Below, one piece after another: positions 20,005 to 64,000 of a DNA stretch of 64,000 bases. The notes below the pieces were generated by a model. The model searched no databases. It worked only from the letters and a program-made list of their open reading frames with translations, and was not told where the DNA came from. Each line of letters begins with the position of its first letter. Within the stretch, counting starts at the first letter, position 1. A program made the translations under genes and the position numbers. Source of the stretch: Balanoglossus misakiensis (Eukaryota > Animalia > Hemichordata); the NCBI GenBank assembly GCA_040954595.2, contig CM082593.2, forward strand, positions 10,239,200 through 10,303,199, given 5' to 3'.

Positions 20005-21250
20005 AGGGGCACAAGCCTATCGGGCTTGTGCTCCTATTGGTATTGTTGGAATATTTCTTTATTATTATTATTCTTCTTCCGAGAAATATGTCATGGTAGA
20101 TCTGGAAAACCGCAGCACCTAGGGGGCTGAAACTTGGTAGGGTGGTAGGGGCCAATGAGTAGACGTGCAGTGGCTCGTGAATATTTAATTAGTCACGTGA
20201 CCTGGCGGCCATATTGGATTTCCTGAAAATCGTTAAACGAGTCCTTCTCAAAAACCACTGGGCCGATCGAGTTCAAATTTGGTGTGCAGGTAGCCTACCT
20301 TCTGTCCATCATTTTACCCCATTGAAATCATGACGTCACACATAAAGTTTTTTTGCTACAATTGTTTTTCTGAAAAACTACTTAAAACTTTAAAAATCTT
20401 CTTCTCCAGAACTAGCGGTTACCGAGTCACGGGATTTGGGATATGTGGTCACCTAACCTATGTCTATCAAGTTTGCGAAGCGCACTGTGATTGGTCGATC
20501 ATTATGGCGGCCATGTTGGATTTTCGGAAAACCATTGAAAAGTGAAAATTCCGTTTTGTAGCCAAAATGTTGACAGCAGGGAAATTCTTTTTTTGGATAT
20601 GAGTCATCATATGACCGGAAGTTGTCACAATTTTTCTGGGCAATTTTCACATGACCTTTGACCCAGTTTTGCAACAACTAATTTTATATGCATATTCCCC
20701 ATACCTCCTCTTGTCAAAGCACCACAGTCATGAATTTTGTGGACATGGGTACCAATGCTGCCAGGACATGGCACAAATATTTTGGTAATTTTGGCAATGA
20801 CCCTTGACCTATTTCTGAAACATCATTTTTCTGCATATCTAATTCCAGGCTAACCAATAGGGCTAGAGGTTTGGTTTTAGTTGGACATGGCCCACTCTGG
20901 GGTCAAAATTTTATGCCCAAATTTTGGGTGACCTTGGATGACCTTTGATCTACTTTCCCATATCTCAGCATCCACAGCAGTTAGAGTCCTGGCTTTTGGG
21001 GGGCAGATGGAGCACATATGGAGTCTTACACAAGACCTCATTAATTATGCGCATACCTTATTCTAGGCGAACCAATAGAGCTAGGGGTCTTGTTTCTAGA
21101 CTTGATTTTTTTGCCCAAATTTGGGGTGACCTCAGGTGACCTTTGACCTACTTTCCCAAATCTTGGTATCCCCAGCAGATACAGCCTTGGCATTTGCTGG
21201 TCACCATGGGAACCGCTTGTGCCCCGCCAACGCTGCTTGCAGCTTTAATT
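20005..21250 (+). mobile_element. HINE-like element, complete nested copy of the same family
   Basis: Same head hairpin at 20005 and an (ATT/TTC)n tract. The body is highly similar to 22413-23617, and the 3' end is GCTTGTGCCCCGCCAACGCTGCTTGCAGCTTTAATT. Confidence 0.75.
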
Positions 21251-21253
21251 ATT

Positions 21254-22412
21254 ACGGGCCCAAGCCAAGCCAGGCTTGGGCCCGTATTGGTTTCGTTGGG
21301 GTTTTTCTTTCTTTCTTTCTTTATTCTTGGTTCATTTCTTTCGCGCGCTAGATCTCAGACACCGCTGCAGGTACAGTTCTCAAACTTGCTACAGTGGTCA
21401 AGGTCAATGAGTAGATGTGCAGTGACTTGCGAATACTTAATTAGTCACGTGACATGGCGGCCATATTGGATTTTCTGAAAAAATGCAAATCTCAGATCTC
21501 AGAAACTACAAGTCAGATCGACTACAGATTTGGCGTGCTGGTAGTATACCCTCTGCCCATCATTTTTGTAATTGGATATTTTGCTGTCAATGTTGCAGTT
21601 TTTTTGCTACAGTTGTTTTTCTGAAATCTGGTCAAAATTTCAAAAATCTTCTTCTCCAGAACCGGCGATAACCGAGTCACGCCGTTTGGGTTATGTGGTC
21701 ACCTAACTGATGTCTATCAAGTTTGCGAAGATCATTGTGATTGGTCAAAGATTATGGCGGCCATATTGAATTTTCGAAAAACCATAGTAAAACTTCAAAA
21801 ATCTTCTCCTCCAGAACGGGCGATAACCGAGTCACAAGATTTGGTGTGTGTGGTCATTAAACGGATGTCTATCAAGTTTGCGAAGGGGAATGTGATTGGT
21901 TGAAGATTATGGCGGCCATATTGGATTTTGTGAAAAACGATTAAAAAGTCAAAATTCCTTTTCTAGCCTAAAAATTGATAGCACAGAAATTATTTTTATG
22001 GATATGAATCATCATATGACAAGAATAAGCTATAAATATTTTTGTAATTTTGGCAATGACCTTTGACCTACTTTTGACGAATCATTTTTCTGCATATCTA
22101 ATTCCAGGCTAACCAATAGGGCTATAAGTTTGGTTTTTGATGTATGTGGATTTGTATGTGATCAAAACATTTTGCTACTTTTCATGACCCCTTTGACCTC
22201 TGGTGACCTCATTAAATATGCGCATACCTAATTAATGATGAACCAATAGACCTAGAGGTTTTGTTTTTGTTATACATGGACCAGTATGGGGTCAAAATAT
22301 TTTGCCCAAATGTTGGGTGACCTCGGGTGACCTTTGACCTACTTAACACTATATTAGCATCAGATCAGATAATAGAGCTTGGGCCCGGACAATGCTGCTT
22401 GCAGCTTTAATT
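21254..22412 (+). mobile_element. HINE-like element, related second family
   Basis: Head hairpin ACGGGCCCAAGCCAAGCCAGGCTTGGGCCCGT, (TTTC)n tract and 3' end GCTTGGGCCCGGACAATGCTGCTTGCAGCTTTAATT. Confidence 0.72.
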
Positions 22413-32300: not shown

Positions 32301-35300
32301 ATGGGTATTAAATGCATATGGGGATTTCAAGTTGATTACAAATCCCTGGGTTAATACGCGTCCAAAAGCACTGTAATTTGACATTGCTAATGCGATGTTG
32401 ACATTGAATGTAATTCTCCGCATTAGGGCAAATGGCAAAGCAAGCTTAATGATGCAATGGAGTAGACCGTGATGCAAGCTATGCATTTTGACATAGGTAT
32501 TTAATGCATGTGCATGGGTATTAAATGTTGAATGTAAATTCTCAGGTTAATACATCTCCAAAAGCACTGTAATTTAAAATTGCTAATGTAAGGGTGACAT
32601 TGAATCTGATTCTTTGCATTAGGGGAAATGGCGTAGCAAGCCTAATGATCCATCTGAGTAGATGGTGATGCAAGCTAAGCATTTTGACATAGGTACTAAA
32701 TGTATATACATGGGTATTTAAAGTTGTCTGTAAATCCCCAGGTTAATACATGGCCATAAGCATTATAATTTGACATTGCTAATGAAATGGTGACACTGAA
32801 TCTGATTCTTTGCATCAGGGTAAATGGCGATGCAAGCTTGATGATGCATCCCGGTAGATAGTGATGCAAACACTTCACTGTGACATGGGTATTAAATGCA
32901 TATGGGGATTAAAAGTTGACTGAAAATCCCTGGGTTAATACAAGTCCAAAAGCACTGAAATTTGACATAGCTAATACAATGGTGACATTGAATGTGATTC
33001 TTTGCATTAGGGGAAATGGCGTAGCAAGCCTAATGATGCATCAGTGTAGATGGTGATCCAAGCTATGCTTTTTGACATAGGTATTTAATGCATGTGCATG
33101 GGTATTTAATGTTGACTGTAAATCCCTGGGTTAATACAAATCCAAAAGCACTGTAATTTGACATTGCTAATACAACGGTGTCATTTAATCTGATTCTTTG
33201 CATCAGGGCAAATTGCGAAGCAAGCTTAATGATGCATCGGAGTATATGGTGATGCAAGCTATGCACTTTGACATACGTATTTAATGCATATGCATTGGTA
33301 TTTAATGTTGACTGTAAATCCCCAGGTTAATACGTGGCCAAAAGCACTGTAATTTGACATTGCTAATGCTACCGTGACACTAAATCTGATTCTTTGCATT
33401 AGGGTAAATTGTGAAGCAAGCTTGATGATGCATCAGGATAGATGGTGTTTTAAGCCCCTCACATCGACATTGGAATATAACGCATATGGGGATTTAAAGT
33501 TAATTGTAAATACCCAGGTTAATACATGTCCAAAAGCACTGTAATTTAAAATTGCTAATGCAATGGTGACATTGAATGTGATTCTTTGCATTAGGGGAAC
33601 TGGCGTAGCAATCCTAATAGTGCATCAGAGTAGATGGTGATGCAAGCTTTGCACTTTGACATAGGTATTTAATGCATATGCATGTGTATTTAATGTTGAC
33701 TATAAATCCTCAGGTGAATACATGGCCATAAACACTATAATTTGACATTGCTAATGAAATGGTGACACTGAATCTGATTCTTTGCATCAGGGCATATTGT
33801 GAAGCATGCTTGATGATGCATTAGGGTCAATAGTGATGGAAACACTGCACTATGACATGGGTATTTAATGCATACGCATTGATATTTACAGTTGACTCTA
33901 AATCCCGAGGTTTATACATGGCTAAAAGCGCTGTAATTTAAAATTACTAATGCAAAGGTTACATTGAATATGGGTAAATGGTGAAGCAAGCTTGAAGATG
34001 CATCAGGGTAGCTGGTGTTTCAAGCCCTTCACATTGACATTGGAATATAATGCATATGGGGATTTAAAGTTGATTGTAAATCCCTAGGTTAATACATGGC
34101 CAAAAGCAATTTTATTTGACATTGCTAATTGAACGATGACATTGAATCCGATTCTTTGCATCAGGGTAAATGGCGATGCAAGCTTGATGATGCATCACGG
34201 TAGATAGTGATGCAAACACTTTACTTTGACATGGGTATTAAATGCATATGGGGATTTCAAGTTGATTACAAATCCCTGGGTTAATACGCGTCCAAAAGCA
34301 CTGTAATTTGACATTGCTAATGCGATGTTGACATTGAATGTAATTCTCCGCATTAGGGCAAATGGCAAAGCAAGCCTAATGATGCAATGGAGTAGACCGT
34401 GATGCAAGCTATGCATTTTGACATAGGTATTTAATGCATGTGCATGGGTATTAAATGTTGAATGTAAATTCTCAGGTTAATACATCTCCAAAAGCACTGT
34501 AATTTAAAATTGCTAATGTAAGGGTGACATTGAATCTGATTCTTTGCATTAGGGGAAATGGCGTAGCAAGCCTAATGATCCATCTGAGTAGATGGTGATG
34601 CAAGCTAAGCATTTTGACATAGGTACTAAATGTATATACATGGGTATTTAAAGTTGTCTGTAAATCCCCAGGTTAATACATGGCCATAAGCATTATAATT
34701 TGACATTGCTAATGAAATGGTGACACTGAATCTGATTCTTTGCATCAGGGCATATTGTGAAGCATGCTTGATGATGTATTAGGGTCAATAGTGATGGAAA
34801 CACTGCACTATGACATGGGTATTTAATGCATACGCATTGATATTTACAGTTGACTCTAAATCCCGAGGTTAATACATGGCTAAAAGCGCTGTAATTTAAA
34901 ATTACTAATGCAAAGGTTACATTGAATATGGGTAAATGGTGAAGCAAGCTTGAAGATGCATCAGGGTAGCTGGTGTTTCAAGCCCTTCACATTGACATTG
35001 GAATATAATGCATATGGGGATTTAAAATTGATTGTAAATCCCTAGGTTAATACATGGCCAAAAGCACTGTAATTTAAAATTGCTAGTGCAATGGTGACAT
35101 TGAATGTGATTCTTTGCATCAGGGCATATTGTGAAGCATGCTTGATGATGCATTAGGGTCAATAGTGATGGAAACACTGCACTATGACATGGGTATTTAA
35201 TGCATACGCATTGATATTTACAGTTGACTCTTAATCCCGAGGTTAATACATGGCTAAAAGCACTGTAATTTAAAATTACTAATGCAAAGGTTACATTGAA

Positions 35301-38300
35301 TATGGGTAAATGGTGAAGCAAGCTTGAAGATGCATCAGGGTAGATGGTGTTTCAAGCCCTTCACATTGACATTGGAATATAATGCATATGGGGATTTAAA
35401 ATTGATTGTAAATCCCTAGGTTAATACGTGGCCAAAAGCAATTTTATTTGACATTGCTAATGCAACGATGACATTGAATCCGATTCTTTGTATCAGGGTA
35501 AATGGCGATGCAAGCTTGATGATGCATCACGGTAGATAGTGATGCAAACACTTCACTTTGACATGGGCATTAAATGCATATGGGGATTTCAAGTTGATTA
35601 CAAATCCCTGGGTTAATACGCGTCCAAAAGCACTGTAATTTGACATTGCTAATGCGATGTTGACATTGAATGTAATTCTCCGCATTAGGGCAAATGGCAA
35701 AGCAAGCTTAATGATGCAATGGAGTAGACGGTGATGCAAGCTATGCATTTTGACATAGGTATTTAATGCATGTGCATGGGTATTTAATGTTGAATGTAAA
35801 TTCCCAGGTTAATACATCTCCAAAAGCACTGTAATTTAAAATTGCTAATGTAAGGGTGACATTGAATCTGATTCTTTGCATTATGGGAAATGGCGTAGCA
35901 AGCCTAATGATGCATCTGAGTAGATGGTGATGCAAGCTAAGCATTTTGATATAGGTACTAAATGTATATACATGGGTATTTAAAGTTGTCTGTAAATCCC
36001 CAGGTTAATACTTGGCAAAAAGCAATTTTATTGGACATTGCTAATGAAATGGTGACACTGAATCTGATTCTTTGCATCAGGGTAAATGGCGATGCAAGCT
36101 TGATGATGCATCCCGGTAGATAGTGATGCAAACACTTCACTGTGACATGGGTATTAAATGCATATGGGGATTAAAAGTTGACTGAAAATCCCTGGGTTAA
36201 TACAAGTCCAAAAGCACTGAAATTTGACATAGCTAATACAATGGTGACATTGAATGTGATTCTTTGCATTAGGGGAAATGGCGTAGCAAGCCTAATGATG
36301 CATCAGTGTAGATGGTGATCCAAGCTATGCTTTTTGACATAGGTATTTAATGCATGTGCATGGGTATTTAATGTTGACTGTAAATCCCTGGGTTAATACA
36401 AATCCAAAAGCACTGTAATTTGACATTGCTAATACAACGGTGTCATTTAATCTGATTCTTTGCATCAGGGCAAATTGCGAAGCAAGCTTAATGATGCATC
36501 GGAGTATATGGTGATGCAAGCTATGCACTTTGACAAACGTATTTAATGCATATGCATTGGTATTTAATGTTGACTGTAAATCCCCAGGTTAATACGTGGC
36601 CAAAAGCACTGTAATTTGACATTGCTAATGCTACCGTGACACTAAATCTGATTCTTTGCATTAGGGTAAATTGTGAAGCAAGCTTGATGATGCATCAGGA
36701 TAGATGGTGTTTTAAGCCCCTCACATCGACATTGGAATATAACGCATATGGGGATTTAAAGTTAATTGTAAATACCCAGGTTAATACATGGCCAAAAGCA
36801 CTGTAATTTAAAATTGCTAATGCAATGGTGACATTGAATGTGATTCTTTGCATTAGGGGAACTGGCGTAGCAATCCTAATAGTGCATCAGAGTAGATGGT
36901 GATGCAAGCTCTGCACTTTGACATAGGTATTTAATGCATATGCATGTGTATTTAATGTTGACTATAAATCCTCAGGTGAATACATGGCCATAAACACTAT
37001 AATTTGACATTGCTAATGAAATGGTGACACTGAATCTGATTCTTTGCATCAGGGCATATTGTGAAGCATGCTTGATGATGCATTAGGGTCAATAGTGATG
37101 GAAACACTGCACTATGACATGGGTATTTAATGCATACGCATTGATATTTACAGTTGACTCTAAATCCCGAGGTTTATACATGGCTAAAAGCGCTGTAATT
37201 TAAAATTACTAATGCAAAGGTTACATTGAATATGGGTAAATGGTGAAGCAAGCTTGAAGATGCATCAGGGTAGCTGGTGTTTCAAGCCCTTCACATTGAC
37301 ATTGGAATATAATGCATATGGGGATTTAAAGTTGATTGTAAATCCCTAGGTTAATACATGGCCAAAAGCAATTTTATTTGACATTGCTAATTGAACGATG
37401 ACATTGAATCCGATTCTTTGCATCAGGGTAAATGGCGATGCAAGCTTGATGATGCATCACGGTAGATAGTGATGCAAACACTTTACTTTGACATGGGTAT
37501 TAAATGCATATGGGGATTTCAAGTTGATTACAAATCCCTGGGTTAATACGCGTCCAAAAGCACTGTAATTTGACATTGCTAATGCGATGTTGACATTGAA
37601 TGTAATTCTCCGCATTAGGGCAAATGGCAAAGCAAGCCTAATGATGCAATGGAGTAGACCGTGATGCAAGCTATGCATTTTGACATAGGTATTTAATGCA
37701 TGTGCATGGGTATTAAATGTTGAATGTAAATTCTCAGGTTAATACATCTCCAAAAGCACTGTAATTTAAAATTGCTAATGTAAGGGTGACATTGAATCTG
37801 ATTCTTTGCATTAGGGGAAATGGCGTAGCAAGCCTAATGATCCATCTGAGTAGATGGTGATGCAAGCTAAGCATTTTGACATAGGTACTAAATGTATATA
37901 CATGGGTATTTAAAGTTGTCTGTAAATCCCCAGGTTAATACATGGCCATAAGCATTATAATTTGACATTGCTAATGAAATGGTGACACTGAATCTGATTC
38001 TTTGCATCAGGGCATATTGTGAAGCATGCTTGATGATGTATTAGGGTCAATAGTGATGGAAACACTGCACTATGACATGGGTATTTAATGCATACGCATT
38101 GATATTTACAGTTGACTCTAAATCCCGAGGTTAATACATGGCTAAAAGCGCTGTAATTTAAAATTACTAATGCAAAGGTTACATTGAATATGGGTAAATG
38201 GTGAAGCAAGCTTGAAGATGCATCAGGGTAGCTGGTGTTTCAAGCCCTTCACATTGACATTGGAATATAATGCATATGGGGATTTAAAATTGATTGTAAA

Positions 38301-41300
38301 TCCCTAGGTTAATACATGGCCAAAAGCACTGTAATTTAAAATTGCTAGTGCAATGGTGACATTGAATGTGATTCTTTGCATCAGGGCATATTGTGAAGCA
38401 TGCTTGATGATGCATTAGGGTCAATAGTGATGGAAACACTGCACTATGACATGGGTATTTAATGCATACGCATTGATATTTACAGTTGACTCTTAATCCC
38501 GAGGTTAATACATGGCTAAAAGCACTGTAATTTAAAATTACTAATGCAAAGGTTACATTGAATATGGGTAAATGGTGAAGCAAGCTTGAAGATGCATCAG
38601 GGTAGATGGTGTTTCAAGCCCTTCACATTGACATTGGAATATAATGCATATGGGGATTTAAAATTGATTGTAAATCCCTAGGTTAATACGTGGCCAAAAG
38701 CAATTTTATTTGACATTGCTAATGCAACGATGACATTGAATCCGATTCTTTGTATCAGGGTAAATGGCGATGCAAGCTTGATGATGCATCACGGTAGATA
38801 GTGATGCAAACACTTCACTTTGACATGGGCATTAAATGCATATGGGGATTTCAAGTTGATTACAAATCCCTGGGTTAATACGCGTCCAAAAGCACTGTAA
38901 TTTGACATTGCTAATGCGATGTTGACATTGAATGTAATTCTCCGCATTAGGGCAAATGGCAAAGCAAGCTTAATGATGCAATGGAGTAGACGGTGATGCA
39001 AGCTATGCATTTTGACATAGGTATTTAATGCATGTGCATGGGTATTTAATGTTGAATGTAAATTCCCAGGTTAATACATCTCCAAAAGCACTGTAATTTA
39101 AAATTGCTAATGTAAGGGTGACATTGAATCTGATTCTTTGCATTATGGGAAATGGCGTAGCAAGCCTAATGATGCATCTGAGTAGATGGTGATGCAAGCT
39201 AAGCATTTTGATATAGGTACTAAATGTATATACATGGGTATTTAAAGTTGTCTGTAAATCCCCAGGTTAATACTTGGCAAAAAGCAATTTTATTGGACAT
39301 TGCTAATGAAATGGTGACACTGAATCTGATTCTTTGCATCAGGGTAAATGGCGATGCAAGCTTGATGATGCATCCCGGTAGATAGTGATGCAAACACTTC
39401 ACTGTGACATGGGTATTAAATGCATATGGGGATTAAAAGTTGACTGAAAATCCCTGGGTTAATACAAGTCCAAAAGCACTGAAATTTGACATAGCTAATA
39501 CAATGGTGACATTGAATGTGATTCTTTGCATTAGGGGAAATGGCGTAGCAAGCCTAATGATGCATCAGTGTAGATGGTGATCCAAGCTATGCTTTTTGAC
39601 ATAGGTATTTAATGCATGTGCATGGGTATTTAATGTTGACTGTAAATCCCTGGGTTAATACAAATCCAAAAGCACTGTAATTTGACATTGCTAATACAAC
39701 GGTGTCATTTAATCTGATTCTTTGCATCAGGGCAAATTGCGAAGCAAGCTTAATGATGCATCGGAGTATATGGTGATGCAAGCTATGCACTTTGACAAAC
39801 GTATTTAATGCATATGCATTGGTATTTAATGTTGACTGTAAATCCCCAGGTTAATACGTGGCCAAAAGCACTGTAATTTGACATTGCTAATGCTACCGTG
39901 ACACTAAATCTGATTCTTTGCATTAGGGTAAATTGTGAAGCAAGCTTGATGATGCATCAGGATAGATGGTGTTTTAAGCCCCTCACATTGACATTGGAAT
40001 ATAACGCATATGGGTATTTAAAGTTAATTGTAAATACCCAGGTTAATACATGGCCAAAAGCACTGTAATTTAAAATTGCTAATGCAATGGTGACATTGAA
40101 TGTGATTCTTTGCATTAGGGGAACTGGCGTAGCAATCCTTATAGTGCATCAGAGTAGATGGTGATGCAAGCTCTGCACTTTGACATAGGTATTTAATGCA
40201 TATGCATGTGTATTTAATGTTGACTATAAATCCTCAGGTGAATACATGGCCATAAACACTATAATTTGACATTGCTAATGAAATGGTGACACTGAATCTG
40301 ATTCTTTGCATCAGGGCATATTGTGAAGCATGCTTGATGATGCATTAGGGTCAATAGTGATGGAAACACTGCACTATGACATGGGTATTTAATGCATACG
40401 CATTGATATTTACAGTTGACTCTAAATCCCGAGGTTTATACATGGCTAAAAGCGCTGTAATTTAAAATTACTAATGCAAAGGTTACATTGAATATGGGTA
40501 AATGGTGAAGCAAGCTTGAAGATGCATCAGGGTAGCTGGTGTTTCAAGCCCTTCACATTGACATTGGAATATAATGCATATGGGGATTTAAAATTGATTG
40601 TAAATCCCTAGGTTAATACATGGCCAAAAGCACTGTAATTTAAAATTGCTAATGCAATGGTGACATTGAATGTGATTCTTTGCATCAGGGCATATTGTGA
40701 AGCATGCTTGATGATGCATTAGGGTCAATAGTGATGGAAACACTGCACTATGACATGGGTATTTAATGCATACGCATTGATATTTACAGTTATCTCTTAA
40801 TCCCGAGGTTAATACATGGCTAAAAGCACTGTAATTTAAAATTACTAATGCAAAGGTTACATTGAATATGGGTAAATGGTGAAGCAAGCTTGAAGATGCA
40901 TCAGGGTAGATGGTGTTTCAAGCCCTTCACATTGACATTGGAATATAATGCATATGGGGATTTAAAATTGATTGTAAATCCCTAGGTTAATACGTGGCCA
41001 AAAGCAATTTTATTTGACATTGCTAATGCAACGATGACATTGAATCCGATTCTTTGTATCAGGGTAAATGGCGATGCAAGCTTGATGATGCATCACGGTA
41101 GATAGTGATGCAAACACTTCACTTTGACATGGGCATTAAATGCATATGGGGATTTCAAGTTGTTTACAAATCCCTGGGTTAATACGCATCCAAAAGCACT
41201 GTAATTTGACATTGCTAATGCGATGTTAACATTGAATGTAATTCTCCGCATTAGGGCAAATGGCAAAGCAAGCTTAATGATGCAATGGAGTAGACGGTGA

Positions 41301-43114
41301 TGCAAGCTATGAATTTTGACATAGGTATTTAATGCATGTGCATGGGTATTTAATGTTGAATGTAAATTCCCAGGTTAATACATCTCCAAAAGCACTGTAA
41401 TTTAAAATTGCTAATGTAAGGGTGACATTGAATCTGATTCTTTGCATTATGGGAAATGGCCTAACAAGCCTAATGATCCATCTGAGTAGATGGTGATGCA
41501 AGCTAAGCATTTTGACATAGGTACTAAATGTATATACATGGGTATTTAAAGTTGTCTGTAAATCCCCAGGTTAATACATGGCCATAAGCTCTATAATTTG
41601 ACATTGCTAATGAAATGGTGACACTGAATCTGATTCTTTGCATCAGGGCATATTGTGAAGCATGCTTGATGATGTATTAGTGTCAACAGTGATGGAAACA
41701 CTGCACTATGACATGGGTATTTAATGCATATGCATTGATATTTACAGTTGACTCTAAATCCCGAGGTTAATACATGGCTAAAAGCGCTGTAATTTAAAAT
41801 TACTAATGCAAAGGTTACATTAAATATGGGTAAATGGTGAAGCAAGCTTGAAGATGCATCAGGGTAGATGGTGTTTCAAGCCCTTTACATTGACTTGGAA
41901 TATAATGCATATGGGGATTTAAAATTGATTGTAAATCCCTAGGTTAATACGTGGCCAAAAGCAATTTTATTTGACATTGCTAATGCAACGATGACATTGA
42001 ATCCGATTCTTTGCATCAGGGTAAATGGCGATGCAAGCTTGATGATGCATCATGGTAGATAGTGATGCAAACACTTCACTTTGACATGGGCATTAAATGC
42101 ATATGGGGATTTCAAGTTGATTACAAATCCCTGGATTAATACGCGTCCAAAAGCACTGTAATTTGACATTGCTAATGCGATGTTGACATTGAATGTAATT
42201 CTCCGCATTAGGGCAAATGGCAAAGCAAGCTTAATGATGCAATGGAGTAGACGGTGATGCAAGCTATGCATTTTGACATAGGTATTTAATGCATGTGCTT
42301 GGGTATTTAATGTTGAATGTAAATTCCCAGGTTAATACATCTCCAAAAGCACTGTAATTTAAAATTGCTAATGTAAGGGTGACATTGAATCTGATTCTTT
42401 GCATTATGGGAAATGGCATAGCAAGCCTAATGATCCATCTGAGTAGATGGTGATGCAAGCTAAGCATTTTGATATAGGTACTAAATGTATATACATGGGT
42501 ATTTAAAGTTGTCTGTAAATCCCCAGGTTAATTCTTGGCAAAAAGCAATTTTATTTTACATTGCTAATGAAATGGTGACACTGAATCTGATTCTTTGCAT
42601 CAGGGTAAATGGCGATGCAAGCTTGATGATGCATCCCGGTAGATAGTGATGCAAACACTTCACTTTGACATGGGTATTAAATGCATATGGGGATTAAAAG
42701 TTGACTGAAAATCCCTGGGTTAATACAAGTCCAAAAGCACTGAAATTTGACATAGCTAATACAATGGTGACATTGAATGTGATTCTTTGCATTAGGGGAA
42801 ATGGCGTAGCAAGCCTAATGATGCATCAGTGTAGATGGTGATCCAAGCTCTGCGCTTTGGCATACATATTTAATGCATGTGCATGGGTATTTAATGTTGA
42901 ATGTAAATTCCCAGGTTAATATATGCATGGGTATTTAATGTTGACTGTAAATCCCTAGGTTAATACATGGCCATAAGTACTGTAAGGGGTAGATGGTGAT
43001 GCAAGCTCTGCACTTTGACATGGGGATTAAATGCATGCTGAGGGGGATTTTAAGTTGTCTGTAAATCCCCAGGTTGATATGTGGCCAAAAGCACTGTAAT
43101 TTGACATTGCTAAT
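26341..43114. repeat. Satellite B, ~192-196-bp divergent monomers organised in 3262-bp and 1930-bp higher-order repeats
   Basis: GGTTAAT core at 26402, 26598, 26790 and 26986. Matching spurious ORFs recur at offsets 3262 (29003/32265, 33063/36325/39587, 34195/37457) and 1930 (31133/33063, 32265/34195). Confidence 0.97.
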
Positions 43115-54189: not shown

Positions 54190-55998
54190 GCAGAAAGAAT
54201 ATCTAAGATAGGGAGAAAATTTGGGTTGGAAGGGACTGCTTTAAAAGATTATGTTAGAGAGGAACAAATTAGACAGAGGGATCTTAGGGCTACTGAGAGA
54301 GAGGAGCAGAGAGAAGATAATAGGCGGCGCGAGGAACATGAGAGAGAGATACTGAAAATGCAAATTCACTTACAAGAATTAAAATTGAAAGGGGAAAATA
54401 CAGAACAGCAGGTTACTGAAAATAATTTGGCAAAAGCGCGTGCTCCGAGACTACAGGGTTTACGTGAGGATGTTGATGATATGGATGCGTACCTTCAACG
54501 TTTTCAGCGCTACGCCACTGCTCAGAAGTGGGAAAAAGATGACTGGGGGTGAATCTCAGTGCATATTGTTACAAGGTAAGGATGTATCCACATACAACCA
54601 AATGCCTGCAGCGTCTGCAAATAATTATGATGAATTGAAACCAGAGTTATTGAGGGCTTACCAGTTAAGTGAGGAGAGTTTTCATGACAAGTTCCGTTCG
54701 TGTATGCCACATTATGATGAAAGTGCTCAAAAGTTTATGGACCGTATTGGTGACTATTTGGGCAGATGGGTAGAACTGGCTGGTACTCCAAAGACGTACA
54801 ATGGGCTTACAGATCTGTTACTTCGAGAGCAGTTTATTGGAGTATGTTCCAGAGACATGGCAATGTTCATTAGAGAGCGACGGCCAGAGAATGTCCAAGA
54901 GATGGTATCTACTGCCTCAAAATACTTAGATGCCCGAGGGTGGTGGAAACTGCCAAGTAATGCCAAGAATAATCCAAGGAGCCAGCCGACAGCAAATACC
55001 AAGCCTGCTGTATATCCAAATCAAGTAAATAAGTTTAATAACAAAACCAATGGTTCCCATGTTTTTAAAGGTACGTGCTTCGTATGTGGTAAAGGTGGTC
55101 ATATGGCCAAAGATTGTAGAAGTAAGCCAAAGATGCATAAGACGGCGGTATTGTTAACTGAAGAAGATAGAAACTATCCACCTAAACAAGAATGTACACA
55201 TTGGGGCAACCGTCAACAGCCCAGGGGACAAGACACTGGTTATGCATGTATGGTGGTAGCAATGGAAATAGATAAAACAGATGCAACACTGAATAAGGAG
55301 TTCGTGTTACCATGTGGTCATAAGCTCCCAGTGATGAGTGCTGCTTGTAGTGCCCATGGAGTGAAGAAGATGCCGGTAATGAAGGGATTGGTCGATGGTA
55401 AGCTGGTTAGCGTTTTGCGTGATAGTGGGTGTAGTAGCGTGGTAGTTCGAAGAAGTCTGGTGTCAAGTAATCAGCTGACTGGTGAGTACAGGACGTGTGT
55501 TCTGATAGATGGGACTATTAGAAGAGTACCTGTAGCCTCTATAAAAGTTGATACCCCTTACTTTGTTGGTGAAGTTACTGCACTGTGCATGATGAACCCT
55601 GTGTATGATTTAATACTGGGCAACATTGATGGTGTATCTGACCCTTCGAATCCTGATACTACATGGCAGGAACCATTGCCGACATGTAGACTGTGTACAA
55701 CTGTTGGACAGGTACCAGGTTTAGCAAATGCTGTGGAGACCAGAGCCCAGAAGATAGCCAACCAAAAACCAATCAGAGAGCTTAAAGTACCTAAAGCTGT
55801 TGGTGAAGTGGTGATGCCAGGGAAGCTTCAACAAGCTCAAGAAGAAGACTCCACTCTTGACAAACTACGTGAGAAGGCAATTTTTGGTGACGAGAAAGTG
55901 ACTAGGAATGGAGGTAGGTTGAAGTTCATCATGAAAGATGGGATCCTGTACAGAGAGTTCAATTCGCCAATGGTCCAATTTGGTGAAAAGCTGTTACA
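54190..55998 (+). pseudogene. gag-pol: Gypsy gag-protease (frameshifted near 54550, interrupted at 55998)
   Basis: N-terminal coiled coil, DMDAYLQRFQRYA, capsid/SCAN-like LLREQF, zinc knuckle CFVCGKGGHMAKDC and aspartic protease LRDSGCS. The last ~34 aa of ORF 54440-56101 is read-through into the inserted transposon. Confidence 0.88.
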
Positions 55999-56040
55999 CA
56001 CTGCGGGAAATACTAGAGCTATGTTGGGCAGTATTCCGCG
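55999..56040 (+). repeat. Left bipartite TIR
   Basis: CACTGCGG + 18 nt + TGGGCAGTATT (56025-56035) + CCGCG. Confidence 0.85.
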
Positions 56041-56082
56041 AAGCGCGAGCTCCCATGTTCACCATAGCAACGCATTGCCAAG

Positions 56083-56733
56083 ATGGCGGCGCCCGTGTTG
56101 ATCGATGCCGAGAAAGTTATAAAACGCAAATTGCGAGAGGCAAAATCTGTGCTTAAACGTAAAAAATGCGTGTCGGACAATCTGTATATACACCCACTCT
56201 TTGATGAACTTGAGGATGTGACAACAAGGGCCATATTTCGAAACGACAAGCTGTCAAAGGACAAGATTCCTTGGCGTGACGTCGCCGTATTTCCCATGTT
56301 TCAGCGTGATATGACCTACTGGCAGAAGACCTTCTACGCTCGGCTGTCAACATCCCCGTCGTTAAGGTCACCATGGCAAAGCAGCTTTACACAACAAATG
56401 CCGAGGGAAGTATTTGATGTTTTTCATCAGTTTGCTACTCGGACCGGTTTTGGTATCGACGAGAAGACCTCCAGGGCTATCATAACCTTGACCTTCACAA
56501 GTTCCTCGAAGCTATTGTATGTGATACGGAAAGGTTATTGCTACGAGGGCGCTATCGGTCAGCATACAGAGAATATCCTAGAGAAGAAAGTCCGTGGAAA
56601 GAGGGTAGCTGTTATATGCACACCTGAGAAGCCCTGTGTTGTGAAATATTTTATCAACAGGGAGACTGTTGCTGTTAGATTCAGCTTTGGTGCCTGGAAC
56701 AAACATGGAATTCCATTACATCCAGAGAACTGA
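56083..56733 (+). CDS. 216-aa basic protein of unknown family, second gene of the transposon
   Basis: Uninterrupted ORF with ATG in CAAGATGGCGGC context, 84 bp inside the left end. Basic N-terminus (KRKLREAKSVLKRKK), AT-rich 3' flank and AATAAA at 56862-56867. Confidence 0.7.
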   Translation: MAAPVLIDAEKVIKRKLREAKSVLKRKKCVSDNLYIHPLFDELEDVTTRAIFRNDKLSKDKIPWRDVAVFPMFQRDMTYWQKTFYARLSTSPSLRSPWQSSFTQQMPREVFDVFHQFATRTGFGIDEKTSRAIITLTFTSSSKLLYVIRKGYCYEGAIGQHTENILEKKVRGKRVAVICTPEKPCVVKYFINRETVAVRFSFGAWNKHGIPLHPEN

Positions 56734-57585
56734 ACCCTATTGATTTTTCACACTGATTCAACCCATCTGACGAACATTTTTTTCCTGATCTGTGGCACAT
56801 GTTGTTCAGTGTAGATGTATCAGTCTGTCAAGACAGTCCTCTCACAATTGACATATATTCAAATAAAAAAAGGAAAATTAGAAGACTCAAAAATTCATCA
56901 CTTGTCTTTATTTATCTACATTCAATACAAATGAACAGATAACGTTTACAAAATTTCCTAAACTGTAAAATTCTTTTTTTCCATCATTATTGTAACATAG
57001 ATTTTTCATTAGTTTCAGAAAAAAATGTATGTTACCTACAATCAACATTGATAAGTCAATCAAAACTGCTCATCTAACAGTTAACCAGGATTTCTGGTCT
57101 AAATTTAATTAATATTTACAATTAATTCCATGACAAAATTTATAAATATCAAGAATTTGATGAGACTTAATTCTTTATTTTTTCACAAATTCATTAAAAT
57201 TTCGTGCAGGTGCAGAATAAACAACTCCTCAAGAAAAATGTAAAACTTTTCTATCAAGCTTATGTATGTCATACATTTTAATTTTGCAAAGCACTGCAAT
57301 CACTATACGATTAAGGGTTTATTCACAATACTTAATAGTGGTAAGATAAGTTTCAATTTCCCTGTCCCCATACATGCACACAAATACAAAATCCCATAAG
57401 AAACATATCATCTCCAGTTCAAAAAGTGTGAATTCATGTGATTTGTGATCTCCATTTTTATTAAATGCAGCTCTCAACTACAGATGAGTCTTTATAATTC
57501 TGTAATGTAATTAATACCATAGTTATCCTTTAATTCTAAAGTAGCACACAGTGACACAATCCACTGTTTCAAATTCAATCATTGT

Positions 57586-59826
57586 TCACAGCATAAGTTT
57601 CTTGAGTTTATTTGATATTTTACCAGTGACAGCTGCTTTTTTTATGTCATCCATAATTGGGTCAACACATATTTCACAGGCAGTCATTGTTTCATTTTTC
57701 AAATTGCCACACATACAGTAGCCTGCATTCTCATAATATCGACTGGGAATGTATTTTTCTTTTTCTTTAAGCTCAAATTGACCTACATTTGCCCTTCTAT
57801 AGTTGTCAGCTTTTGGACTTTTGTTCCTCAGCCAAAAAAGCATCACATATTCGTGTCGAAATATGAGGGCCCACCTATTTTGAGGTGTAGAATTTTCACT
57901 GAATTCTAGCAGGCGTAGATGCTTTGCCTCTCTGCCTTCCATTGTGTTTAGGCCTAATCCCAGACTGAATTGCTTATAGATACTAGTGGTGTGTTTTGGG
58001 ACTACAAAACCAATGTGCCACACAGTATTATTGACATTCAGAAACAGGGAATGTAGATTAAAGTACCACCGACACTTATGCCTAAGTACAAGCAAATCTC
58101 CCTCATTTATGTTGAATCGTGAGAATAACAAAGTGATATCTCTAAGCAAGATACCAGTATATGTGTAGAGAGCTAATTGAGCCCGACGCTTTGGACTGTC
58201 TGTATCACTTCTCAATGCTAATACCAATCCCATGAAATGCCAAGCAAGTTTGCGAGACTCCTCACCAGTGAAGCGATAAACCACATTAATGTTGGCATTT
58301 GACTTGACACTATTTTCATTGAAGTATTTTACAATCTTATTATACAACTTTCCAGCTTTTACTTGATATTTTAGGGCAGACAGGAATTTGTACAGATATG
58401 ACTCGTTAGGTAGATTCTCAATTTTAACTCCATTTTCACGACCCTTTTCCGAAGTGTGGGCAACTGCGTCAATCAGTAATCGTTGGAAGTAGTATTGCCA
58501 TGCATTGTTCTTTAAATGCAATGGCTCAGCCTTGGCACAATCAATAAATCTACCCAACGGTGGTACAAATTCCTGTCTTGACCTCAGACTGGCTATAAAT
58601 TGTGTGATTTTGGGTCGCACTGTTTTGGGCTTTCCAGTTTTAATTTTCTTAGTTGACTTCAACTTTTCAACAGCTTCTGCATCTTTAATTCTTTTCTGAT
58701 ATTTCCATTCATCCCACTTCTGACCTGGGCCAATTTCTGCTCCAATACAATCAATATCATTTTTGGAAACGTTAGCAAATGAGCTGAAATACTTTGCTGC
58801 ATTGCTTAGTTCTCCAGACACACTGGCCAATCCCTTCTGATCAAAGGGTAAAAGTGACACCTGAAAAGTTACATCAAGACTGCCAACTTTATATTTACGT
58901 TTCTCAATACACTCAAGGTCTTTTGACAATGCAATTGCAAATTCAATCATTATGGGGTCATCCTCTTTTATGTTTGCCCCTAATAGGAGAAAATTGTGGT
59001 CTGGGCTAGCAACACGGTGGGTCACATTCAAGAAACTAACTAGCCATGCAGTGGCCTGTCCATGTTTGCCAAACGGAGCCCCGTCAGCACCTATACTGAT
59101 TTGAAATGAGCCCTCCTGTTTACCGAACCAGTTAAGAATATCAGGCTGTGTTTCCCCCATATTTAAATATAAACTGGCAATCTTAATAAGCAACTCCTCA
59201 GGGTTTCTTTTTAAGCCGACTTGTTTGCCTTCAGATGATATAATTGGCTCAAGATTTCCAATGTCAAGGTTACTTACATACTGTACAACTTTTGTGTATG
59301 GGAGCAGTCTTGGTATTCTACAGCCAGAATGAATTTCTAATGCTTTCCTAGGATGTTTCAAGTTGGAGAACATCTGAAGTTCACTCTGCCTCAGACAGTT
59401 ATATTTTCGTTTGGATAGTACTCCGCCCTCATACATAGTTCTGACACTCCTCACCAAATTGTTCTCACTTTTCTCAAATTTACTGATGTATTTATCAAAT
59501 ACTGATGGCATTACTTTTTTACTGATTTGGGGAGAGGTTCTGAAGTATGTTTTCATTTGGTCAGGAGTGGCAGAATTAACAAGAGTATACCACAAACCAT
59601 CAAGTGCTGCTTTTGGTGGATGTAGTACATTCGGTTTATTTATACCTTTGGCTGGGCTTACATCTGTAGTTGCTACATGAATATTTATGGCTGCTGATAA
59701 GGTTTCACACCTACGTTCATACTGTTGACGTCGCGACAGCTTCAAAGATTCACTATTATCTGCACATACTTCAGTGTTCTTGTGGACCCATTTAGAGCGT
59801 TTCACATTAACATCATCAACAGGAAT
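57586..59826 (-). CDS. Transposase main coding exon (DDE catalytic core, C-terminal CxC-x11-CxxC)
   Basis: Open for 746 codons from a phase-0 acceptor (TTTCAG|ATT at 59827/59826). Motifs GADG (D at 59083-59085), PFDQK (D at 58840-58842), AEPLH, RFTGEESRKL and GLGLNTMEGREAKH (E at 57928-57930) parallel RAG1 CDG, GYDEK, DALH, MNGNFARKL and GAWASEGNES. Confidence 0.85.
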   Translation of the reverse strand: MPVDDVNVKRSKWVHKNTEVCADNSESLKLSRRQQYERRCETLSAAINIHVATTDVSPAKGINKPNVLHPPKAALDGLWYTLVNSATPDQMKTYFRTSPQISKKVMPSVFDKYISKFEKSENNLVRSVRTMYEGGVLSKRKYNCLRQSELQMFSNLKHPRKALEIHSGCRIPRLLPYTKVVQYVSNLDIGNLEPIISSEGKQVGLKRNPEELLIKIASLYLNMGETQPDILNWFGKQEGSFQISIGADGAPFGKHGQATAWLVSFLNVTHRVASPDHNFLLLGANIKEDDPIMIEFAIALSKDLECIEKRKYKVGSLDVTFQVSLLPFDQKGLASVSGELSNAAKYFSSFANVSKNDIDCIGAEIGPGQKWDEWKYQKRIKDAEAVEKLKSTKKIKTGKPKTVRPKITQFIASLRSRQEFVPPLGRFIDCAKAEPLHLKNNAWQYYFQRLLIDAVAHTSEKGRENGVKIENLPNESYLYKFLSALKYQVKAGKLYNKIVKYFNENSVKSNANINVVYRFTGEESRKLAWHFMGLVLALRSDTDSPKRRAQLALYTYTGILLRDITLLFSRFNINEGDLLVLRHKCRWYFNLHSLFLNVNNTVWHIGFVVPKHTTSIYKQFSLGLGLNTMEGREAKHLRLLEFSENSTPQNRWALIFRHEYVMLFWLRNKSPKADNYRRANVGQFELKEKEKYIPSRYYENAGYCMCGNLKNETMTACEICVDPIMDDIKKAAVTGKISNKLKKLML

Positions 59827-60179
59827 CTGAAAGATTAAGTGTGTGATAAATATATACTAATTAGAATATAATCATTATATATAAAATAAAATCTTCTTAC
59901 AAGTTAATCATTAATTTAAATGTCCTTGATAAGAAATACACACGTGTAGCCTGTATTTTTCTGACAACTTCTGCAATAAAAATCCTAAAAAATATATATA
60001 GTTTGTTGGAAAACCTAGATGTTTTGCATCAAAGCTGAACCCATTTTGTTATCATTGTTTACACAGGATCATGTGACATGAAGTTCAAAAAGCGAATTTG
60101 GGCTAAAATTTGAAGAGGATTTATACAAATCTGAGATTTTTAAAATTATGACTAAGTCTATTTATCTGATCTAGCTTAC

Positions 60180-60623
60180 CTTTCTCTTATTATTCTTTGT
60201 AGCTAAGATCTCACAAATCTTACTGTTCTTCTTCTCTAGTCTAGCTAGCTGGGTTGAGGATCTTTTTACTAGTCTCCTAGCTGCACTCAACTTATTCAAC
60301 TTATCCTGAATTATGCTTTCTTCCTCATCTCTCTTTCTCTTTCTCTGTCTACACCACTCTCCTAAGTTAAACCTGTGTTTAGTCTGTCCTCTCTTTGTTC
60401 TAACTACCAATAGGTTGTTGGCCACGCTCCCAGACAAAGATCTAGTCTTCAATTTCTCCTGATATGGTTGTTGCAAACACTTCTCTTCAGCTACCTGTCT
60501 CGCTATCTTTTGGTCCTTTGCCCACTGGCCTATGTTGAAGTAACTTTTCCCTTTTCTATTCGGCATAACAATAGACAAACTTTTAAGAAGTGCGCTACTC
60601 CTGTTGAATAGTTTGCCCCACAT
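60180..60623 (-). CDS. Transposase first coding exon (148 aa, basic, coiled-coil)
   Basis: GCCATGTGG start at 60623. Phase-0 donor AAG|GTAAGC at 60180/60179 joins in frame across a 353-bp GT-AG intron (59827-60179) to give ~894 aa. An upstream acceptor TTTTCAG at 60640 means the true start could lie in an earlier exon. Confidence 0.72.
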
Positions 60624-61429
60624 GGCTCTAAATCTATACCTGAAAAGGGTGAACAAGAGAAATATCTTGACAATAATTATCTATCCGAGGGAAGCAAAAA
60701 CAAAACACCTGCTCATTATACTTCCTCCAGAAATTGAGGTCAAAGGTGACATAGAAAGAATGTGGGTAACCTTACCATAACAATCTCGCCCGTTCATTTT
60801 TTTCTTATTTCGTTTTCACCCTCGAATTTCCAGCGAATTATATCAAGAATATATTTTAGCACAAACTATTGGTTTCTGATTTTTCAGTTACGGTCTTATT
60901 TTCTGTCAATTCTATGAACAATATCACCATGTCGCTGAAAATTCGAAGCGCCGCCATTACAATCAATGTAACCCGTGCTGCTGCCAAGGAACACACAGGG
61001 TCGTATATTTTCGCTTGGTATGATTTCGTCATATTGCTTGTAGCAGCATTTTAAACATGGAATCCTATGTTTACGTATAAAAGACTAAATTCGTATGGTT
61101 TTCAAATTGAAAAAAACAATTCTGTGAAGCTGAATCGTTGTAATTTTTAGTGTTTGTTTATGGTTGCTTAGGACGGCTTCTGCTATAGCAACGGCCAGGG
61201 ACTGTCAGCGGGTGATCAAAATGTTCAAGTTATTTGGCTGATACACATAAATAACACAGCAGAATCGCAACTTTATTTCATATTGTCTCTGACATCTTGC
61301 TAATTTTACTAAACAAAACTTGGAATAAAGCAATATTACTCACCGAATTATGCTGTGCATCGACAGCTGTGTTCGATCGCGAACGCCATTACTGTGTCTA
61401 ATTAAATATTCATGAGCTTCATAGGCTGC

Positions 61430-61472
61430 CACGGAAATACTGCCCATAGGTGGCGTCGTTCAAGCTGTAGTG
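61430..61472 (-). repeat. Right bipartite TIR
   Basis: Minus strand reads CACTACAG + 18 nt + TGGGCAGTATT (61446-61436) + TCCGTG. Confidence 0.85.
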
Positions 61473-62742
61473 ACAGGTGGTGGTTCCCAGAGTGTATCGT
61501 AACCAGGTGATGAGACTAGCCCATGAATCAGTGCTGGGTGGTCACCACGGAACTCACAAGACCACAGACAAGATCCTCAGCAACTTCGTTTGGCCTGGGC
61601 TAACATCAGATGTTTCCCGTTACTGTCAGTCCTGTGATTCATGTCAACGGACACAACCAAAGGGACGGGTGACCAAGGTACCACTTGGAAGTATGCCACT
61701 AATAGATATCCCTTTCCTACGTATTGCAGTAGACCTGGTTGGCCCTATTCATCCATGCACTGAACGCAAGAATAGGTACATACTTACTGTTGTTGATTAT
61801 GCAACACGCTATCCGGAGGCTGTTGCATTGACTAACATTGATACCAAGACTGTTGCAGAGGCGCTCCTGGACATCTACTCAAGAGTGGGGTGTCCACGTG
61901 AAATTCTGACAGATCAAGGAACTCAATTTACATCAGATGTGATGCGTGAGGTCAGCCGGCTTTTGTCTATAAAGCAGAAGACTACCACCCCATACCACCC
62001 AGCATTCAATGGTCTAGTGGAACGGTTCAATGGTACATTGAAACTCATGCTCAGGAAGATGTGTGAGGAACGTCCAACATATTGGGATCGTTATCTGAAT
62101 GCTTTACTATTTGCCTACAGAGAAACGCCTCAATCGAGCACAGGATTCTCTCCGTTTGAATTACTTTATGGGAGGAGTGTGCGTGGTCCAATGGCTATCT
62201 TGAAAGAACTATGGACTGGAGAGATCAGTGAACCAGAAACCAAAACGACTTATCAATACATCCTTGATCTTCAAAAGAAATTAAAGAAGGCATGCGATTT
62301 AGCAAGACAAGAACTGAAGATATCACAAGGCAAATACAAGTCCTACTACAATAGAAAGGCCAAATGGAGGAAGTTCAACAAAGGTGACGAGGTGTTATTG
62401 CTACTACCTACTGACCATAATAAACTACTTATGCACTGGAAGGGTCCTTTTCCAGTGGTGGAGAAAGCGAGCAATATGGATTACAAGATTGACTTTGGTC
62501 ATAGGGTGAAAACATTCCATGCCAACCTGTTGAAGAGGTACTATCGAAGAACTGATCAGCTAGATGAAGTATCAGCTGGACTTCTTGAGATTGTGTGTGT
62601 ATCTGTGATAGATGAGCAGAGTTATGAATCTTCAGAAGTACAAGAGAACACAGGGGTTAAAGTAAACGATGACTTACTGCGGGTTCCTGCATTCAAGCAG
62701 AAAGAATTTGCTGCAGATGTGAATGTATGTGACAACTTGTAA
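61473..62742 (+). pseudogene. pol: Gypsy integrase region of pol
   Basis: HHCC motif (AHES..GHHG..CQSCDSC), catalytic VDLVGP / TDQG / VERFNG and GPY/F-like WKGPF. The TAA at 62740-62742 is premature, because the same frame continues into the RT region. Confidence 0.9.
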
Positions 62743-63482
62743 GACATACAGGAGCAAGTGGTGAGGAGGTTGCTGATCAATTACAAAGATATGTTAACTG
62801 ATATTCGTGGTAACACCAACCTGGGTTTCCATGACATCAAGTTGATGGATCCAACACCAGTATGCAGTAGGCCATACCCCATCCCTCATGCACTCCGTGA
62901 AGCAGTGAAAGATGAAGTCAAAACGATGATTAAGATGGGAGTAGCTGAACCTTCAGAGAGTCCATATGCTGTTCCATTGGTAATGGTGAAGAAATCTGAT
63001 GGGTCCAATCGTTGTTGTGTTGACATGAGAAAGCTCAATCGCATAACAGTGTTTGATGCAGAGCCTACACCAGACCTGAGTGAGCTTTTTGCTTTTTGCT
63101 AAGTTATCCAAGGATCACTATTTCACTAAAGTAGATCTCAGCAAAGAATATTGGCAAGTCCCGTTGACTGATAATTCTAAACAATTGACGGCATTTATCA
63201 CGCATGATGGGCTATACCAATTTATCAAAATGCCTTTCGGACTTGTAAATAGTGCTGCGACTTTTAGCAGAATTATGAGAAGATTGTTAAGAGATATGAA
63301 GAACGTAGACAACTATATCGATCACATACTGATCCACACTGCATCATGGGAAGAACATATCAAGACAATTACAGATTTGATGAGCAGACTACGAAAGGCA
63401 AAGTTAACAGCGAGACCAACTAAGTGTTATGTGGGTTATGAGCAGATCGATTTCCTGGGTCATGTGGTTGGTCATGGTGAAC
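62743..63482 (+). pseudogene. pol: Gypsy reverse transcriptase region, frameshifted and truncated
   Basis: RPYPIP, SPYAVPLVMVKKSDGSNRCCVDMRKLN, KVDLSKEYWQVP, MPFGLVNS and FLGHVVG. YIDD reads YIDH; a 7-bp duplication (CTTTTTG x2) at ~63085 causes a frameshift. Confidence 0.9.
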
Positions 63483-64000
63483 TAGTCCTGTTTCAAAATG
63501 ACCTACATTACAGGTCCTATGCACACGTATTACATGTTCTGATTGGTTTATCCACTTCTCTAAGGTCCACTTGCGGCTCGCTGATTGGAGGGACCTTATG
63601 TGTTAGGTCTTATTACTATGTATTATTCACCAGACCTTGTAGGTTAGGTCTTATTACAATGCATTATTCACTTTACAGCTCCCTGATTGGTTAATGTGTA
63701 GGTCTGGTCCTCCAGTGTTCACTGCCTCATTATGCAGGACCTTGTAGGTTAGGTCTTATTAATATGTATTTATTCACCATACAGCTCCCTGATTGGTTAA
63801 CGTGTCAGTCTGGTCCCCCCCCAGTGTTCACTGCCTCATTGTGAAATGTCCCATGTGCTTCCTGGCTAGCGTTGTGGTAACATATTATTCGGGGTGTCCG
63901 CAGATCGTTCATTGATTTTCTGAGAAATAGCCTAACTGATACTATCTCCAACATAAACCGCACCCTGGAAAGATTAAATGATCTTTTAGGTGGACTTTGA
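63483..64000. mobile_element. Unrelated repeat-containing sequence that truncates RT (probable further insertion)
   Basis: RT similarity stops after GHGEL. The new sequence starts TAGTCCTG and has ~106-bp tandem copies (~63632-63842) of GACCTTGTAGGTTAGGTCTTATTA...CAGTGTTCACTGCCTCATT. Confidence 0.5.

Follow-up and report, generated by a model that had tools for sequence, protein, structure and literature searches.

Two-part, RSS-like ends of a DNA transposon with a predicted RAG1/Transib-fold transposase in the hemichordate Balanoglossus misakiensis

How RSS-type two-part ends and the RAG1–RAG2 partnership arose has been argued from a few lineages (Transib and the RAGL elements). The CMCT clade (CACTA, Mirage, Chapaev, Transib and RAG1) is characterized by 5'-CA..TG-3' termini and a duplication of 2–5 bp (PMC12730594), and a C(2)C zinc motif has been reported as common to CACTA, Chapaev, Transib and RAG1. 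The 38-bp termini of Transib were described as a heptamer, a variable 23-bp spacer and a nonamer, mostly symmetric at the two ends (Kapitonov and Jurka 2005, PMC1131882), and canonical Transibs are described as encoding one protein (PMC4411706). In some Nozomi-related Transibs 3-bp duplications were reported, this trait being labile (bioRxiv 10.64898/2026.08.26.747230). According to the descriptions available, RAGL elements carry convergent RAG1L and RAG2L genes, are flanked by 5-bp duplications, and have a core with four zinc ligands and a tail of the form Cx2Cx3GHx4C (PMC7204232, PMC10629977). The ends of ProtoRAG contain two conserved blocks, TR1 and TR5, with spacers of 27 and 31 bp whose length matters (PMC8289069). 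The Chapaev3 duplications were given as TWA, between A and T (PMC4079192), and an element with the footprint of CAC..GTG termini and a 3-bp duplication could be filed as EnSpm (PMC12730594). The available part of a survey of DDE transposases (10.1101/2021.09.26.461848) contains nothing on the lineage treated here. The end design that we describe is of a known kind, since symmetric heptamer–spacer–nonamer ends were reported for Transib in 2005; less ordinary is the element itself, with its RAG1-type predicted fold, no C(2)C and a convergent non-kelch gene.

The window analysed (the whole 64-kb stretch of B. misakiensis DNA) contains at 55999–61472 a DNA transposon of 5,474 bp with CAC..GTG ends, and ACA is duplicated on both sides of it (Table 1). 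The proposal of the initial annotation that these are real transposon ends with a 3-bp target-site duplication thus holds, and half of the related end pairs carry such a duplication likewise (see below). The element interrupts the pol of a Gypsy-type retrotransposon, as found by a Pfam scan of the flanks. In one public sample, possibly related to the source of the window, contigs carry the same insertion across both junctions; over 6.5 kb they show 26 listed substitutions and 2 single-base indels relative to the window, and the end motifs show 0 differences from the window in the main contigs of that sample. A tip at 55997 with a 1-bp duplication is formally possible from the flank (..ACA|CAC..) but disfavoured on three grounds: the inner-block matrix of the relatives gives its highest score at offset 0 of 30 in both ends, the tip of a sister family stands in the 55999 register and the relatives have 3-bp duplications.

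Table 1 Positions in the window of the features of the element and of its host site
Feature	Position	Strand	Basis or remark
Left flank: Gypsy-type gag-protease frame, cut by the element	54389..55995	+	Zinc knuckle, SCAN-like, weak aspartyl protease match
Left target-site duplication copy, ACA	55996..55998	.	Same ACA at 61473–61475; 3-bp duplications in relatives
Left tip motif CACTGCGGG	55999..56007	+	Relatives' consensus CACGCYGGG
Left variable spacer	56008..56024	+	4/18 against right end (positions 9–26); 5/16 against sister family (positions 10–25, hand count)
Left inner block TGGGCAGTATT, element positions 27–37	56025..56035	+	Overlaps relatives' conserved block at 23–33
ORF2, 216 aa, convergent with the transposase	56083..56733	+	Predicted three N-terminal helices and alpha/beta domain
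Transposase core exon, 746 aa, open	57586..59826	-	Predicted RAG1/Transib fold; homologues
Four-cysteine motif C704, C706, C717, C720; candidate DNA-binding tail	57667..57717	-	Each in 104–106/110 homologues
Presumed catalytic residues D248, D329, E633	Codon starts 59085, 58842, 57930	-	Alignment with homologues
Helical region, residues 30–115, at RAG1 nonamer-binding domain position; candidate inner-block binder	59482..59739	-	Superposition, Foldseek lengths
Putative upstream transposase exon	60180..60639	-	Open frame between splice acceptor and in-phase donor
Right inner block TGGGCAGTATT, positions 27–37 from right tip	61436..61446	-	End comparison
Right tip motif CACTACAGC	61464..61472	-	End comparison
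Right target-site duplication copy, ACA	61473..61475	.	Same ACA at 55996–55998
Right flank: Gypsy-type integrase frame	61476..62742	+	H2C2 zinc-binding, rve, SH3

When the left end, read from 55999, was compared with the reverse complement of the right end (tip at 61472), identity was 6/8 in the tip, 4/18 in the spacer, 11/11 at positions 27–37 and 4/23 at positions 38–60; the letters and coordinates first given for both ends were exact. Overall, the termini agree at 6/10 and 21/37 positions. Exactly two copies of TGGGCAGTATT are present in the 64-kb window (56025 on the plus strand, 61446 on the minus strand), and no one-mismatch copies. Among 200,000 shuffles, an in-register run of at least 11 appeared in 3. 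If one gap is allowed, the shared block grows to TATTCCG/TATTTCCG. Subterminal repeat arrays were absent from the terminal 400 bp. The true ends were not among the 25 listed of 104 pairs from a generic inverted-repeat finder, which fits the expectation that standard TIR finders would miss them. These bipartite ends are real, and they are probably functional.

The gene for the putative transposase lies on the minus strand. Among 7,995 scored candidates, 243 homologues were found, the best being an uncharacterized protein of Ptychodera flava (74% identity); among the 120 matches listed, the other named homologues come from sea anemones and corals (34–45%). The profile matched 3,282 clusters at 50% identity, fragments included, and near-identical copies are present at six gene loci of Nematostella vectensis. 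In the alignment of 110 sequences (the window protein and 109 homologues) D248, D329, H437 and E633 are invariant. The 746-aa protein had no Pfam match above the cut-off, the putative upstream exon no BLASTP match among 265 proteins compared, and the transposase sequence 0 matches among solved structures (PDB). The predicted model (pLDDT 90) found RAG1 as its first structural match (Foldseek E 6e-13), and its residues 116–680 superpose on RAG1 459–1008 with a Z of 21.8 (range 21.8–22.9), an rmsd of 3.9 and 467 residues aligned. Further matches were BbRAG1L (Z 20.0), HzTransib (14.6, up to 20.4 in other conformations) and the P element (10.9), values that rank folds and not ancestry. Identity in the RAG1-type structural alignments was 8–13%. 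With profiles built from 110 and from 49 sequences, no chain of Transib or RAG1 was retrieved at E up to 10, and the profiles of the transposase (110; 49), its N-terminal region and ORF2 gave only unrelated matches among solved structures (E 0.24 or worse).

The Foldseek alignments were about 100 columns longer against RAG1 chains of 589–623 residues than against those of 541–552 residues, one of the shorter chains being titled 'without NBD'. The predicted helical segment of residues 30–115 occupies in the model the position of the RAG1 nonamer-binding domain and is a candidate reader of the inner block; an N-terminal profile built from 36 segments did not retrieve RAG1. A CxxC within 45 residues past D329 was found in 0/110 and 0/49 homologues, and the window protein has no CxxC anywhere from D329 to E633. 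YFSSF or YPSSF stands in place of C(2)C, at what we take to be the corresponding position from the RAG1 spacing. For the H(3-4)H pair, H612 is present in 107/110 and 35/49 sequences, and position 607 is H in 51/110 and 4/49 and F in the window. Three distant homologues (P0219, P0225 and P0234) carry a C-terminal SAP domain after the cysteine tail, two of them also with a weak C2H2 finger match, which is consistent with extra DNA-binding modules at the tail.

ORF2, analysed from its second codon, matches 36 of the 81 related loci described below, always on the opposite strand and downstream of the transposase. When it was searched for with its own profile, it was present in 33/35 loci with at least 1.5 kb downstream and in 36/44 with at least 1 kb; 32 of the 36 copies are without a stop in the extracted frame and a few are short. 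The ORF2 model from 22 sequences (pLDDT 83) consists of three helices and an alpha/beta domain and is not a propeller, and a kelch Pfam match was found in none of the 22 members. A single-sequence search found no homologue. With the model, neither Foldseek nor a viral fold library gave a match at E 0.001, and in a wide structural search only the first two helices were matched (Z up to 8.5), the alpha/beta part being barely covered. PF26709 is annotated on all 20 ORF2 homologues found. An assignment to Argonaute N/PAZ from Atlas features (0.91) was rejected as weak, with low recognition and few shared features, and the Atlas features of an ORF2 homologue gave no usable match. By analogy, ORF2 most likely acts as an accessory factor of transposition. 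In one family a short extra ORF2-like fragment lies on the plus strand near the left end (L016 1168–1263, L017 3228–3323, L018 804–899).

With the CMCT clade the window element shares CA..TG termini, a duplication within 2–5 bp and a DDE core with the predicted RAG1/Transib fold, but neither its transposase nor the homologues have C(2)C. It resembles Transib in the CAC..GTG termini of about 38 bp, composed of a tip, a variable spacer and an inner motif, and in the predicted fold (Z 14.6–20.4). It differs from Transib in the absence of the CACAATG heptamer and of an A-rich nonamer at positions 31–38, only CAC being shared, in a D-to-E spacing of 304 aa (206–214 in Transib), in the second convergent gene, and in the lack of C(2)C; the profile searches gave no sequence match to Transib. 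Its 3-bp duplication also contrasts with the 5-bp duplication of Transib, although exceptions exist within Transib. The likeness to RAGL/ProtoRAG and to RAG1–RAG2 includes the best structural match, two convergent genes between CAC ends, ends of two conserved blocks and a spacer, and a cysteine-rich C-terminal tail. However, the partner is a 216-aa alpha/beta protein and not a six-bladed kelch-PHD RAG2L, the duplication is 3 bp and not 5 bp, the C(2)C zinc ligands are missing and the tail reads CxC-x10-CxxC, not Cx2Cx3GHx4C. The spacers are equal at both ends of the window element, whereas those of the RAG/RSS system follow the unequal 12/23 rule. The analogy to the RSS drawn in the initial annotation is better founded than could be judged from the letters, given the RAG1 fold predicted for the transposase.

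Chapaev3 shares with the window element the 3-bp duplication, an LH motif and animal hosts, but only 1/8 duplications is TWA, C(2)C is absent, the first histidine of H(4)H is not conserved and a second gene is present. EnSpm/CACTA elements encode two proteins, and the window element agrees with them in CAC..GTG termini (here CACTG and CACTA) and the 3-bp duplication. It differs from them in that no transposase Pfam family was matched by the window protein or by its 49 homologues, in the convergent genes, in the absence of C(2)C and in the lack of subterminal repeat arrays. The element would work like Transib and ProtoRAG, yet it lacks defining features of each of Transib, RAGL, Chapaev3 and CACTA. 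In the literature outside most subscription journals and Repbase Reports, no paper was found to describe an element that combines a RAG1 fold and a convergent non-kelch gene with the lack of C(2)C, and the four family motifs had no match in the part searched of one published supplement. An entry for the lineage in Repbase under EnSpm or Transib is quite possible, considering the multi-copy family in Nematostella.

With the boundaries, the 3-bp duplication, the lineage-wide in-register inner block, the conserved DDE residues, the absence of C(2)C and the conserved convergent ORF2 at hand, we consider the element to be, with good probability, a cut-and-paste DNA transposon whose transposase, of predicted RAG1/Transib fold, reads each end at two sites, the CAC tip and the inner block. 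Cleavage would take place at the tip, and the inner block, about three helical turns in, would be held by a domain of its own for DNA binding. As in RAG and Transib, a transposase dimer may nick at the tips, excise the element through hairpins on the flanks and integrate it with a 3-bp stagger. The N-terminal helical region at the RAG1 nonamer-binding position or the four-cysteine tail might contact positions 23–37. The bases between tip and block would be constrained more in length than in sequence, so that the left and right spacers drift apart, completely in the window family and partly in others. ORF2 would be the accessory factor, in the genomic position that RAG2L has in ProtoRAG but with an unrelated fold.

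The two-site reading was compared with the ends of related elements. With the transposase profile 81 related loci were gathered, mostly on marine-animal contigs in metagenome assemblies; they form 48 families at 88% nucleotide identity, the window family being the 49th. Viral contigs contained no related locus and genome contigs one, on a bacterial-MAG contig that is likely stray animal DNA. Homology from copy to copy stops at CACGC-type tips. A 3-bp duplication was found in 7/14 end pairs from the same contig against 10/182 cross pairs; among the same-contig pairs a 2-bp duplication was found in 1/14 and duplications of 4 bp and 5 bp in 0/14. Several of the 7/14 pairs that have no 3-bp duplication have one flank in common with another contig and resemble mosaics formed in the assembly. 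The duplications of the window and its relatives are ACA, TTA, TAG, ATT, AAT, AGC, GAT and ATA.

From 108 tip-like matches 62 were kept on positions 1–9 only and reduced to 39 non-redundant ends; the 46 dropped comprise 19 in a tandem array at L081 (hand count) and others that failed the rule on positions 1–9. In these 39 ends, which probably include a few false tips and which, as the families are related, are not independent trials, positions 23–32 hold 4.7 bits, compared with a maximum of 1.4 in 2,000 shuffles and of 1.36 in 2,000 rotations. Conservation is moderate at positions 10–15, lowest at 16–20, rises to a second peak at 23–33 and is at background after 37; the inner block of the relatives reads AAAT..GGCCA at 23–33. 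The background-level identity past position 37 argues that neutral DNA between the families is saturated. The best-scoring register was the expected one in 23 ends, -1 in 3 and elsewhere in 13. For both window ends, which did not enter the matrix, the highest score falls at offset 0 of 30, although the two share 6/10 of the scored bases and so are nearer one test than two. The window motif TGGGCAG overlaps a motif that stands equally far from the tip in families with transposases only about 35–40% identical to that of the window. An inner motif at a fixed distance from the tip, as first proposed from the window, is thus seen across the lineage.

The strict form of the proposal did not extend to the relatives. 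The exact 11-mer is family-specific, with 0 copies in the 81 related loci, 7 of which contain one one-mismatch match each. The bipartite pattern had 0 matches in viral contigs. The 8-18-11 geometry is likewise specific to the family, since a number of relatives have near-continuous TIRs of 35 bp. A clean rule of an 8-mer, an 18-bp free spacer and an 11-mer does not describe the relatives: they have a tip of 9 bp, which in most cases reaches about 15 bp when left and right ends are compared, their least conserved stretch is at 16–22 and their inner block at 23–33. In 13 related pairs left/right identity was 0.97 (positions 1–9), 0.79 (10–15), 0.49 (16–22), 0.61 (23–33), 0.38 (34–37) and 0.26 (38–60). 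Continuous TIRs or a variable distance in other copies had been named as evidence against the two-part design: 23/39 ends are in register, but some pairs have near-continuous TIRs (L011 with 33/40 and L021 with 31/40) and some ends are shifted by one base. The family of the window is, as judged from these alignments, the extreme of a tip-plus-inner-block design shared in graded form by the lineage.

This gradation speaks for an alternative of low but not negligible probability, in which ordinary, imperfect TIRs about 35 bp long are bound as one continuous footprint. Positions 9–26 would then have drifted in the window family, and the perfect 11-mer would come from co-evolution of its two ends and would not mark a separate binding module. 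The near-continuous TIRs of some relatives and the information at positions 10–15 agree with it (positions 10, 11, 13, 15 and 21 of the 39 ends are likewise above the shuffle threshold). In the account of ProtoRAG, too, the bases adjacent to the heptamer are important, and activity falls with most mutations of the spacer (PMC8289069). A single footprint is, however, at odds with the second peak at 23–33 past the trough at 16–20 across families and with L008, whose ends are of two blocks like those of the window, independently. The sister family also speaks against it, as it replaces positions 10–25 almost wholly and is yet 82% alike from position 26.

The contig of this sister family was found at 80% likeness in the public sample that carries the insertion of the window. 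It aligns from 56024 (element position 26) to 56137 with 94/114 identical letters, 20 differences and 2 gaps, differences being listed only more than 30 letters from contig ends, and its 11-mer may differ from that of the window. The unaligned letters 5' of the alignment read GTTTT CACTACGGG CCAGACCCACTGTAGT; if the 30 unaligned letters abut the junction, the tip falls in the 55999 register and is identical to the window at 8/9 positions, against 5/16 in the spacer (hand count). With a tip in the same register beside a different spacer, the difference between the window spacers is not the decay of a once-continuous TIR, the case that was initially named as refuting the two-part design. A 70-letter contig of low depth differs from the window in its flank before 55997 and by one change inside the 11-mer, at 56028; it may be a second copy or a library artefact, the latter because other loose ends of that run look like linker.

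Somewhat less probable than a continuous footprint, and compatible with reading of the end at two sites, is that the inner block is bound by ORF2 or a host factor, or that it is a promoter element for the two inward-facing genes. ORF2 starts 84 bp from the left tip in the window and about 70–115 bp from its tip in most relatives, which places the inner block within the promoter zone of ORF2, and the two genes are both directed inward. A second protein binds subterminal motifs in CACTA elements, a precedent for such a role of ORF2. Against a promoter stands that the distance from the block to the tip is fixed at both ends whereas the distance to the start codons differs widely, and a promoter motif would not need to keep register with the tip. 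An origin of the match by chance, or by decay of an old copy with a formerly continuous TIR, to which a tip identity of only 6/8 and the two indels in the transposase frame in contigs of the other sample might point, is very improbable in view of the 3/200,000 shuffles, the two open reading frames of the window, the only 26 listed differences in 6.5 kb of that sample with none in the end motifs of the main contigs, and a 4/18 spacer beside an 11/11 block in register with distant relatives, which is beyond what decay gives.

With its predicted RAG1-type fold and its facing second gene, the element is probably a little-known relative of the transposon from which vertebrate adaptive immunity arose. 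A wider interpretation, which we put forward tentatively and hold to be possible rather than probable, is that the lineage forms a so far undescribed branch of the RAG1/Transib clade, common among cnidarians and found also in a hemichordate. It would have dropped the core zinc site regarded as universal in the clade, would read two-part RSS-like ends and would have acquired independently a convergent partner of a different fold that acts as its RAG2. If true, this would be a second, parallel origin of a two-subunit recombinase of the RAG type. The family of the window offers an independent comparison: it has the same predicted catalytic fold and a tip-plus-inner-block end, but its stagger is 3 bp, the C(2)C zinc motif is missing and the partner that takes the RAG2 position is not a kelch protein. 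Its abundance, the near-identical copies in N. vectensis and the many intact frames mean that the lineage can be reconstituted, which would show whether a second subunit, a zinc domain and a spacer of given length are general needs of this enzyme class. Elements of this class are overlooked by Pfam scans and inverted-repeat finders.

Several structures were observed beside the ends proper. In one family (L009, at 668 and 1513; also L012, L013 and L014) there are two nested left ends 845 bp apart, the inner of which pairs better with the right end (33/40) and in L011 has a 3-bp duplication. In L009–L014, L020/L021/L042/L054, L019 and L039, the transposase-side interior is bounded by long internal inverted repeats that lie within the true ends and are possibly nested elements or a derived foldback structure. 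An ungated CAC..GTG search had proposed such repeats as ends in L009–L014, L020/L021/L042/L054 and L081; they were rejected because their flanks are complementary too. The L081 element lies within an array of roughly 294-bp repeats that start with the tip-like CACGCCTGGG; these repeats (552–883 and 16971–22038) are inverted between the two sides, and their contig, assigned to a bacterial MAG, is probably animal DNA gone astray.

In the contigs of runs X1 and X2 the two single-base indels relative to the window, at 57694 and 58767, fall inside the transposase exon, so that the frame is broken there and open in the window. By eye, the host Gypsy-type element (window 54389–63694) has its integrase frame (61474–62742) 5' of frames resembling reverse transcriptase, which are broken (62743–63694); integrase first is the order of the Gmr1 clade. 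The window further contains two large satellite arrays, at 1–19125 and 26381–42925, with units of 116 bp in a higher-order structure and of 196/388 bp in about 86/43 copies.
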